Positions 23,563 to 26,516 of a stretch of DNA of 64,000 nucleotides are shown here, in pieces; position 1 is the stretch's first letter; the number at the start of each line of letters is the position of its first letter. Position numbers and translations under genes: made by a program. Origin of the DNA: a virus (lineage: Duplodnaviria > Caudoviricetes); the IMG/VR virus record IMGVR_UViG_3300020375_000001, positions 128,001 through 192,000 of that record; one strand, written 5' to 3'. The notes under the pieces are model-generated. The model ran no database searches. It was not told where the DNA came from and saw only the letters and a list, made by a program, of their open reading frames with translations.

Positions 23563-25103
23563 CACCCCCATCCAAAGTGGACCATATCTTCATCCTCAAT
23601 TGAGGAGCCTACCGTTTGGGGTTTCCCCTACTCTACTCACTTCAATCACTTGTGTGACCAACCGATTATTACACCACGGTCGTCATTAGTCCGTACTATG
23701 TACGAATGTAGTTTTCGATGGCCTCTGAACACATCCCGTATCTAACGACTTAGGGACTTCGCTGCGTCGGTTATGTCTCCATTAAACGTTTTTACCCTGC
23801 CACCCTCTTCCATTACTGGGGATGGTATTGTGGCGTGTTTCCACCCACAAGTGGTAGTTTAATAGATTATAGACATTTTCCCGCAATTAGGTAGGTTTGT
23901 CTTAGTCGTATTACTACGACTGGGAGACCCTATGTTAATTGGTTTTAAATTATCGAGATATTAAGTTTAGCTAACTCGAGTGAAAGCATCTTCCTAAGTC
24001 TTCTTCTATCCAAATCAAGATAGTTCAATACTACTAGCGGAATCTGTTTACTATTAGCTAACTTTACTTTATCCCAATCCCGCATCTTGGTTTCCTCTAA
24101 AGCTTCGTAACCACCGAACCGTTCTACTGGCTCATAGTGTTGGATACCGTGAAACTCAATGAGTACTTCAAATTTGGGTAGAAAGAAATCGTATCTAAAT
24201 AACGACCCGTCGAATTTATATTCTCTTTTAAACTCAATCCCGTTTACTTCCAAGATATGTGCTATCTGACGCTCACCTAAAGATTCCCTACATCTAGGGC
24301 AACCCTGTTTCTGGGAAACGTGTCGGTTAGGATTAGTTTTAAAAGGACCATGTCCTTTACAGACCACCGTTATAGGTGTCTTGTTATTGACATACTCGAC
24401 TCTGTCGTAATTGTAGATATGACCATGTACCTGTTGTGCCTCAGCTATAAAATCTTCTAAAGTCTTTTTAGTCGACTCACGATAGCAGGCTGGACACCCA
24501 GAACCATTTAGGTGTACCCTAGCCTTTTGATGGAATGTCCCATGTTTGAAACACCCAATCTTTACGGTTTCGGTATAACCCCTGAAATCAAGGTTTTGGT
24601 AACAGTACTTGTTGCCATGTACTAACTTAGCTTTTTCTAGGAACTTCCCTTTATCCATTATGGCTTCCGAAGTCGCACACGTTGGACAATTGGTCCCCAA
24701 CTTGTAATGATTATAGGGCTTTACTTTAAAATCCCCATGCTCCCTACAGGTAACGATAATAGGTGTATCGGTGTTACTAAACACCACCTTATCGTAGAGG
24801 TAGCGGTCACCGTGTTGTTCTTTAGCCAATTTAATAAAATCATCTTTAGTAAATTTACCGGAACAAGCCAAACAACCTTTAGAGCCTCTAACTAAGTAAC
24901 ACGGCTTGGTTATATATTCACCGTGTTCCATACAACGAACTTTAATAGGTTTCTTAGAACCTAAGTATTTTGACTCCGAAAAATCTAATGAGTCATTATA
25001 CATTTCTTTCATCTTGTCGTAGAATTCTTTCTCTCTACGTTTAAAACCTTTTAACATAATTCATATCTCATGGATATTATTCACATAAGATATGTTGCTT
25101 TTT
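23563..25103 (-). mobile_element. Group I self-splicing intron (1541 nt) carrying a homing endonuclease
   Basis: P AAUUGCGGGAAA, Q CGCAGC, R GUUCAGAGGCCA, S AAGAUAUGGUCC. P3 CCUACC/GGUAGG, P7 GGCCA/UGGUC, P8 UCCUC-AAUU-GAGGA. IGS GUCUCCC pairs with exon GGGAGAU (U.G at the splice site). Ends in G. Splicing gives in-frame KQRGD-LPIRK. Confidence 0.92.
23945..25057 (-). CDS. Intron-encoded homing endonuclease (DUF723-like Zn repeats plus EDxHD/Vsr-like nuclease)
   Basis: Four C-x2-H...G-x1-2-C-x2-C repeats. C-terminal GERQIAHIL...RYDFFLP...LIEFHGIQH. Confidence 0.88.
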   Translation of the reverse strand: MLKGFKRREKEFYDKMKEMYNDSLDFSESKYLGSKKPIKVRCMEHGEYITKPCYLVRGSKGCLACSGKFTKDDFIKLAKEQHGDRYLYDKVVFSNTDTPIIVTCREHGDFKVKPYNHYKLGTNCPTCATSEAIMDKGKFLEKAKLVHGNKYCYQNLDFRGYTETVKIGCFKHGTFHQKARVHLNGSGCPACYRESTKKTLEDFIAEAQQVHGHIYNYDRVEYVNNKTPITVVCKGHGPFKTNPNRHVSQKQGCPRCRESLGERQIAHILEVNGIEFKREYKFDGSLFRYDFFLPKFEVLIEFHGIQHYEPVERFGGYEALEETKMRDWDKVKLANSKQIPLVVLNYLDLDRRRLRKMLSLELAKLNISII

Positions 25104-26516
25104 ATCTCCCCGCTGTTTGGCCATATGGTACACAACGCCATTGGCTTTGAACTTGCCATCCTTTCCTACTTTAGGAAGTCTGACGTGAACAGTCGAGGGC
25201 TTACCACCTAACGGAGTTAACTGAATAGAATAGTGGTCGTATTTGTTCGCCGCATCCATTACAGTTTCACGTTTAAAACTGGTTACTGCCACACCGGTGT
25301 TCTGAACATTCAGAACCATTGCCGCTACGTCCTTCTCGAGGATTTTACTGATGTAGTGGGCATCCGCTGTTTTAAGCGATGACTTAAGCATGTTTTTATC
25401 AAGCACGCCATCTAAGTCAGGGGCAGACCATTCAGGAATCTCAAGGTCTTTCTCTTTTACAGTAGCCTGCTCTTCAAGAGACCCAGAGCCATCGGTGGCT
25501 TCGATGGTTTTATACGTGTTGGCCAGACGTACGGCACGTTTGTATTCCGGTAATGACATCTGACCGGCATCGCGCAATTCTCTAGCCTTACCTTCAACCG
25601 CAATAGTGCGGTCATTAGTATACACATTGGTAGACAGGTCAAGGTCTTCTTCGGTGAAGTCTTCTTCGGTTGCATTGGTAATCGTCTCCAATTCCTGCAC
25701 GCGAGTCAGGTAACGAACAAAGGCTTTGTCAAACTCACCATTAATTTGCTCTTCGTCATCGCTTAACTTTTCGACCTTCCATGCCTGTAACTCACCCAAG
25801 TTCAGAATACTGAATTTACCCCCACGCATAAATACCAAGTTAACATACTTGATATTCTCACCAAGAATAGTATCCAGTTCATGAGTACCTTGAGTACAGT
25901 ACTGCCACAGGTAATAGAAGTACAGGGATTCCACTTTCTTAAACGGTTCAAGCGATTCAAGCGTGGGTTTCTTATTTAACATACGCAGTTCTTCCAGCTC
26001 AGGAAATACTTCAGGTATCTCCATGTGGATAAACTGGTTACGTAGAGTTTCTGCCGTTAGTTTTGCCACGGTATCCCAAACAGTACGATTTAGGTTACTC
26101 CACTCGTACCAGCTTTGTAGTGCATTACGGCTATAGCGGTAAATGTGGGGTAGCATGGCATAGTTTACAACAACCAAATTGTTTTGGTCCCGTACACCCT
26201 GCTCAAACTTCCGTAGCTGGCGAATCTTTCTCATTCGCTTGTGGTATATCTTTAAACGCGAACGCAGCTCAGAGCTACGCTGACGCGGTCTACCAAGGTC
26301 TAAGGTTAATTCTTCAATGTGCCATGCATGGCAAGACTCACGTCCATTAAACAGTGGACTGTCCTGGTCTGGACCATTTTCAGTCTCTTCGGTCGGGATG
26401 TGGTGTAGTAGCGATTCCTTTGGAAGAATCAGAGAAGCCTGTTCAAAGAACATTGGCGACTTCAACTTCTCGTAGGTTCGCACACCATACTTCCGATAAA
26501 ATTCTGGATAAAGCAT
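25104..26516 (-). CDS. rpoB: Virion RNA polymerase beta subunit (phiKZ gp178-like), exon 1
   Basis: N-terminus MLYPEFYRKYGVR typical of the family. Ends DGKFKANGVVYHMAKQRGD, comparable to RpoB NGTFVINGTERVIVSQLHR. Spliced product is 471+853 = 1324 aa. Confidence 0.88.

Follow-up and report, generated by a model that had tools for sequence, protein, structure and literature searches.

An IA-type group I intron in a marine jumbo-phage virion RNA polymerase gene, with a putative homing endonuclease in the P1 loop and a predicted helix between intron tail and downstream exon

Open reading frames (ORFs) for Vsr-like nucleases are described in the P1 loop of the recA introns of Bacillus cereus and phage 0305phi8-36 (Dassa et al., PMC2677866; PMC2504315), while the enzyme of the phage intron, I-Bth0305I, was placed in P5 by Taylor et al. 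(PMC3239194). In phage PhiPA3, interference competition has been shown for gp210, encoded by an intron of a virion RNA polymerase (RNAP) gene (PMC11620839). The 3' splice site of group I introns is canonically determined by P10 and P9.0 (PMC3984707), and the IA3 subgroup carries a single P9 followed by a short 3' end (PMC2504315). The locus analysed here is an intron in a 64,000-nt stretch (the window) of a Caudoviricetes virus, positions 128,001 to 192,000 of IMG/VR record IMGVR_UViG_3300020375_000001. It is best explained, with good confidence, as a mobile IA-type intron in the virion RNAP beta gene, with an endonuclease gene in L1, the loop of P1, and a helix between the intron tail and exon 2. 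Placement of an ORF in L1 is already known; what appears to be new is the predicted tail-exon helix and a DUF723-Vsr enzyme at a new RNAP site.

25104..26516, minus strand: exon 1 of the virion RNAP beta-like gene (phiKZ gp178 type; phrog_3148), 471 codons, ending ...KQRGD
23563..25103, minus strand: group I intron, IA-type, 1,541 nt, with terminal G at 23563
21001..23562, minus strand: exon 2 of the RNAP beta-like gene (phrog_3148, in-frame joining, RNA contigs), starting LPIRK

The virion RNAP beta subunit, phrog_3148, is matched in its two halves by separate ORFs, 26516-25077 and 23571-21001. Joining 25104 to 23562 is in frame and yields a 1,324-aa protein with the junction KQRGD|LPIRK, 83% identical to the intron-less homologue L003 and colinear with it through the junction, around which the residues are identical in the intron-less L003 and L005. 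Metatranscriptome contigs X14 and X15, from two runs of one sample, make precisely this joint, skipping exactly 1,541 nt with zero mismatches. The last exon base is 25104 and not 25106, the upper limit of the range given by an earlier, sequence-only reading. An intron contig in RNA begins at 25103, without the exon-1 link and with the exon-2 link kept. RNA run X16, from a third study, contains only unspliced junctions at low depth, and DNA run X17, from another study, contains no joined exons. The contigs of this one sample support splicing in nature.

25104..25110, minus strand: exon strand of P1, GGGAGAU (covariation), with U25104 as last exon base
23922..23928, minus strand: internal guide sequence GUCUCCC (covariation)
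23929..25103, minus strand: L1, the 1,175-nt P1 loop, with the endonuclease gene
23929..23931, minus strand: 5' strand of a short P10, pairing with exon 2 +1 to +3 (23562-23560)
23904..23921, minus strand: P2 hairpin with GUAA loop

As the sequence-only reading proposed, GUCUCCC pairs with GGGAGAU through six Watson-Crick pairs plus a U.G at the splice site; 0.016 exact copies of the heptamer are expected by chance in the 1,215 nt preceding the core. It had also been called the only good guide: it is indeed the best in the whole intron, and the ORF holds one weaker decoy, GUUUCCC (24319-24313), which was rejected (-9.1 vs -11.7 kcal/mol; not kept in the orthologue L004). Relatives were collected via one exact 19-nt core motif plus relatives of the endonuclease, giving about 45 distinct introns, of which nearly all share this codon as insertion point; the 39 with exon 1 were used for P1 counts. 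Exon positions -1 to -6 are paired with a guide just 5' of P2 in all 39, in 10 hexamer combinations, and the U.G at the 5' splice site is likewise constant (39/39). Watson-Crick pairs at -3 to -7 number 169, against 113.5 +/- 5.0 in shuffles, and the tree of the cores shows 10, 7 and 3 changes at positions -4, -5 and -6, each matched on the opposite strand.

The endonuclease is present in 24 of these 39 introns and reduced to remnants or missing in 15. L1 measures 13-1,566 nt between the same flanks overall, 13-317 nt in ORF-less and remnant introns, and 13-35 nt in some ORF-less relatives. P1 is always paired across this range, and the ORF is therefore in L1. The proposed position of the endonuclease in a P1 loop, under a helix spanning about 1.17 kb, thus agrees with the covariation, the short loops of ORF-less relatives and the exact RNA junction. 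That the guide pairing with exon 1 lies 1,175 nt downstream, that the ORF is looped out from L1 and that the exons are joined exactly is nearly certain. The expected P2 hairpin is present at 23921-23904, and P2 forms a hairpin in 37 of 39 relatives despite many sequence changes. The suggested P10 between AGG and exon-2 CUU is possible in the window intron; within the family, however, constancy is confined to the +1 pair (35/36, against 20/36 at +2 and 13/36 at +3), P10 being mostly 1-3 bp. A fold masking the guide when exon 1 is absent was found in only 11 of 39 relatives, mostly via invariant bases, and was rejected as a family feature.

23579..23895, minus strand: ribozyme core (Rfam alignment, RNAalifold of 42 cores)
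23895-23890 / 23613-23608, minus strand: P3
23725-23719 / 23584-23579, minus strand: P7
23606-23593, minus strand: P8

The Rfam group I match extends over 23946-23551 (RF00028, 55.4 bits, cut-off 50). The P3-P8 core carries the P, Q, R and S elements and the G-binding site in P7, includes P4-P6 with a P5 extension, and is joined by the U.G in P1 and the terminal G23563 as end signals. Extra helices lie between P7 and P3', a region of about 105 nt with several covarying hairpins, as in IA introns. The tail of 13-23 nt across the family may be set beside the IA3 trait of a single P9 with a short 3' end.

23564..23578, minus strand: short 3' tail with P9.0 (A23578-U23564, C23577-G23565), without a normal P9 hairpin
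23567..23573, minus strand: intron strand of the tail-exon helix, GGAUGGG (covariation)
23553..23559, minus strand: exon-2 strand of the tail-exon helix, CCCAUCC, +4 to +10, Pro-Ile codons (covariation)

Only 16 nt remain 3' of P7; their ends form P9.0, and their middle pairs with exon-2 positions +4 to +10. The tail is 13-17 nt long in 40 of 43 introns. P9.0 is 97% paired, its second pair being changed on both sides in 15 of 37 sequences. At +6 the pair is Watson-Crick in 39 of 39 introns (CG 26, UA 5, AU 5, GC 3), with the intron partner of this third Pro-codon base tracking CCC, CCU, CCA and CCG and changing, like the exon strand, 8 times on the core tree. The +7 pair is present in 39/39 with two matched changes on that tree, and Pro-Phe and Pro-Leu exon variants are likewise matched by the intron tail. 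In fixed columns the tail helix is 83.9% paired and the whole 3' structure 86.9%, against at most 50.5% when slid, with 0 of 500 shuffles as high. The tree count weighs more than the shuffles, because related sequences can beat shuffles. On this covariation the tail-exon helix is very probably real. It occurs with or without an ORF, so a role in compensating for a long L1 was rejected. An in-frame ATG at 23571, considered as a restart for exon 2, is explained by pairing to the Ile codon together with the tail length.

P9.0 and the tail-exon helix use separate bases and interleave, giving the topology of an H-type pseudoknot whose last loop contains the terminal G and exon +1 to +3. Such a geometry suits a second stem of 6-7 bp crossed by a short loop. 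The helix probably forms a pseudoknot presenting the 3' splice site, and that it aids use of this site as a substitute guide is somewhat favoured. The canonical P10 and P9.0 (PMC3984707) are both present in the window intron in short form, but here the intron tail, and not the guide, would pair with the 3' exon as an extra helix. The broadest statement, that an undescribed pseudoknot, whose tail reads exon-2 +4 to +10, has taken the place of the P9 hairpin and of most of P10 in at least 40 jumbo-phage RNAP introns, where it presents the 3' splice site and ties synonymous Pro-Ile codons to the intron, is evenly balanced between true and false. No description of tail-exon pairing was found in targeted searches of the open-access literature, most subscription papers lying outside the search. 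If true, the helix would be a third way to pick a group I 3' splice site, beside P9.0 and P10, with relevance to ribozyme and circular-RNA design, for which ORF-less natural members of about 400 nt (L053, L071) exist.

The same helix could instead act as a brake, masking the 3' splice site until the first step, or shielding intron-internal endonuclease transcripts from 3' splice-site hydrolysis. Local folding covers the splice site with a hairpin of 9 bp (-14.2 kcal/mol), the tail is far more stable in the duplex with the exon (-11.4) than folded on itself (-0.9), and the RNA contigs retain the intron-exon 2 junction with the exon 1-intron junction missing, all of which would fit such a role. 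The conserved helix, however, ends at +4 and leaves P9.0, the terminal G and exon positions +1 to +3 free, and P9.0 covaries in these very sequences; the helix is kept in ORF-less introns, and it accompanies a very short P10. A braking role, though the main rival, is accordingly considered unlikely, and presentation of the 3' splice site is the preferred function.

In the preferred mechanism, exon 1 would pair with its distant guide, as the covariation indicates, leaving the endonuclease gene hanging out of L1. The 16-nt tail would contribute P9.0 and a helix of 6-7 bp with exon 2 in place of the normal P9 and a long P10, and the resulting pseudoknot would hold the 3' splice site in place for exon ligation. 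The joining seen in one sample would then restore the 1,324-aa subunit. On long transcripts a hairpin would hide the ribosome site of the ORF, and a late TATG start inside this hairpin would free it, by analogy with T4 td and phiKZ late promoters. The DUF723 repeats would bind the intron-less GAT|CTT junction, the Vsr-like domain would cut it, and the intron would home into relatives. If true, good splicing in the new allele would require homing to co-convert no fewer than 6 nt of exon 1 and 10 nt of exon 2.

Several points weigh against this reading. The window helix can extend to 9 bp with a small loop over the splice site, competing with P9.0 and P10, and pairs are weaker at +9 (35/39) and +10 (24/39). 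In the tree count the helix register was picked per sequence as the best of 7 offsets, and L001, L002, L045 and L048 were left out of the tail-helix count of 39. The loci were fetched with a single exact 19-nt core motif, which biases sampling to the window intron's family, and the RNA junction comes from contigs of one sample without a DNA run of the same sample. The TATG is missing at the expected place in 10 of 24 relatives. The intron-less L003 differs at several wobble positions around the site, and cutting of L003 is therefore not assured. Among the four introns left out, L001, L002 and L048 have a full P9 hairpin of 8-9 bp and no standard tail-exon helix, while in L045 P10 has 6 bp, P9.0 is not clear and the tail-exon helix is displaced to +6 to +12, which offers a natural test case for a trade-off between P10 and the tail helix.

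Comparison with the described systems places the L1 ORF in a wider setting. The recA intron of Bacillus phage 0305phi8-36 with I-Bth0305I (PMC2677866, PMC3239194) is alike in its L1 ORF and provides the best fold match to the nuclease domain; its core is weakly similar to that of the window intron (74% over 70 nt), and a hairpin precedes the ORF in both. Its 6-bp P1 closes 862 nt downstream (L077:21250-22050), and the sequence therefore supports P1 (PMC2677866) over P5 (PMC3239194) for I-Bth0305I. It differs in its host gene, recA rather than RNAP, in a NUMOD2/HTH binding region against four DUF723 repeats, in an ORF that overlaps the guide, whereas the window ORF ends 16 nt before it, and in a normal P9 hairpin without a tail-exon helix. 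The chromosomal recA intron of B. cereus AH1134 (PMC2504315; Vsr-like ORF per PMC2677866), compared by description, has its endonuclease gene within P1, the ORF being lost in most relatives. Searches of the literature for ORFs in P1 and for a pairing of tail and exon yielded the recA precedents only, which is weak evidence of absence.

The PhiPA3 gp210 intron in the virion RNAP gene gp211/209 (PMC11620839) shares the host gene and belongs to a nucleus-forming phage. It lies after DD at about aa 949, a site that is empty in the window, as the window's site is in PhiPA3, and gp210 is an HNH nickase without similarity to the window enzyme. In this intron (L075:6717-7973) the gp210 gene lies 5' of a candidate guide and P2, in what would be about 1,035 nt of L1, and its last codons overlap both; the candidate P1 has 3 exon pairs plus an intron extension covarying in phiEL. 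On this sequence evidence gp210 appears to lie in L1, a weaker reading than for the window intron; the word "loop" is absent from the main text of the gp210 paper (PMC11620839). An ORF-less relative, L024:5936-6307, retains such an ORF's first and last codons.

Vibrio phages vB_VmeM-Yong XC31 (MK308674) and vB_pir03 (MT811961) carry an intron at the same site as the window, not annotated as such, with a 37% identical endonuclease in L1 and a compensated P1; these introns have no P2 and a full P9 hairpin, and P10 is longer in pir03. Their virion beta-prime genes contain further unannotated group I introns with L1 ORFs (L001:954-1943, L002:977-2024), two codons apart in the GADFDGD motif, whose P1 helices of 6 and 8 bp close after the ORFs. 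The view of L1 as a less common ORF position is not supported, since I-Bth0305I, the XC31 and pir03 beta-prime ORFs and, on the weaker reading, PhiPA3 gp210 also lie there; L1 looks like the usual ORF position among jumbo-phage RNAP introns. The window intron thus adds one case, kilobase-spanning P1 helices being common in jumbo-phage RNAP introns, PhiPA3 included by our own reading.

23945..25057, minus strand: gene of a putative 370-aa homing endonuclease (phrog_559, DUF723)
24290..25036, minus strand: four DUF723-type CxxH...CxxC repeats, about aa 8-256, putative Zn- and DNA-binding modules (repeated fold in model)
23954..24289, minus strand: Vsr-like, EDxHD-type nuclease domain, aa 257-368 (fold matches, conserved residues)

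The four Zn-finger-like repeats recognised earlier correspond to four CxxH...CxxC repeats; in an alignment of 40 proteins all 16 Cys/His ligand positions are invariant except H45, which is more than 90% conserved, and the repeats are predicted to bind Zn and DNA. The nuclease domain matches I-Bth0305I (3r3p) with a VIA-align Z of 11.7 (root-mean-square deviation 2.7, 96 aligned), tied with Vsr (1cw0, Z 11.5); deviations to the two are 2.7-2.8 and Foldseek E values 0.004-0.02. A sequence search of the PDB gave 3hrl as sole match (E 0.24). The EDxHD residues of I-Bth0305I are E170, D196, E206, H213 and D222. Their counterparts E262, D290, E301, H307 and D327 are conserved at 90% or more in the same alignment, and the profile aligns to I-Bth0305I with a conditional E of 1e-5, H being offset by one and D327 following an insertion. 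A C-terminal Vsr-fold catalytic domain with conserved E, D, acidic, H and D residues is thus found, together with a separate N-terminal repeat region, of DUF723 type where the EDxHD prototype has NUMOD repeats. The EFHGIQH motif earlier taken as the nuclease motif is within the active site but forms only part of it. The HNH label from PHROG was rejected, given the Vsr fold after the DUF723 repeats, no Pfam HNH match and no similarity to gp210. A subfamily of about 485 aa occupies L1 of L026, L035, L039, L042, L043, L046, L047, L058 and L063, longer by about 115 residues that lie between the matched part and the guide.

Purifying selection acts on the gene (pN 0.11 vs pS 0.71 against L004). A seawater strain in X17 (window 22600-23527, 25282-26000) is 6-9% divergent in exon 2 and about 1% in exon 1, with a near-identical intron. 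Of 24 differences between one X17 contig and the window, 23 fall within 408 nt of exon 2, and the intron has no more than one (P about 3e-15 if even). This pattern hints at recent homing, whose expected footprint it matches; recombination or a chimeric contig could also give it. Cutting of intron-less alleles by the putative enzyme is plausible from the intact Vsr-like site, purifying selection and this footprint, and an active homing enzyme is likely. The intron-less L003 is closer to the intron-bearing L004 than either is to the window, and the intron has therefore been gained and lost.

The ORF might, on the other hand, no longer encode a homing nuclease and have been retained to help splicing across the long P1 or to regulate by binding DNA, as CapR does. 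In PLE a repressor has been derived from related repeats (PMC8096241), and relatives show faint CapR matches. The catalytic residues are, however, intact and conserved, the ORF is deleted in 15 of 39 introns from several lineages, as expected of a homing cycle, and X17 bears the homing-like footprint; such a switch of function is improbable. With homing as the favoured role, the suggested interference with co-infecting phages is possible by analogy to gp210 of PhiPA3, an HNH enzyme with no relation to the window's and encoded elsewhere in the same gene; a benefit from interference is doubtful. The DUF723-Vsr enzyme would be a second, unrelated nuclease aimed at gp210's target gene, which bears on the generality of interference competition.

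The tail-exon complementarity could also be a mutational by-product of template switching at a short inverted repeat, free of selection on RNA structure. Its arms lie only about 7 nt apart, and quasi-palindrome correction is known at such arm spacing. G.U pairs are nevertheless kept in several members, the stem grows neither inward nor outward, and the helix is maintained among cores whose end branches have a median length of 0.23 changes per site, all of which makes this origin very improbable. Least likely of all, the joined RNA contig would be an intron-less DNA allele in the library, with a 5' splice site or guide other than proposed: the sample has no DNA run of its own and the shallow X16 offers no joined exons, but the joined contig matches the window exons without a mismatch, whereas the known intron-less genes diverge at the junction, a mixture with DNA should have yielded the two exon-intron junctions equally and not just one, and P1 covariation is independent of RNA reads.

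25062..25094, minus strand: 11-bp hairpin over a purine-rich stretch before the ORF start (z = -5.2), with TATG 25087-25084 ending its 5' arm

Hairpins of differing sequence stand ahead of the ORF in most ORF-bearing relatives, and TATG occurs at +11 to +21 in 14 of 24 of them, against 0.03 per intron expected. In T4 intron nucleases a late start frees the ribosome site. The core of the phiKZ late promoter is TATG, its G being the start site (PMC4666361). By analogy, control of the endonuclease ORF by a late promoter is fairly likely. The exon-1 frame stops at 25079-25077, 8 codons into the intron and in the loop of this hairpin; in most related introns it stops at once on entering the intron.

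The record is a complete-looking phage of 207,748 bp from marine samples, in which no second group I intron and no endonuclease paralogue was found. Two small genes (135 and 83 aa) lie at 26530-27188, between the beta-prime and beta genes, the 135-aa product having no Pfam or PHROG match. The phage record also encodes non-virion RNAP homologues and a chimallin homologue (G000:C1:81810-83705, E 2e-42), the latter pointing to a probably nucleus-forming phage in which splicing may be uncoupled from translation.

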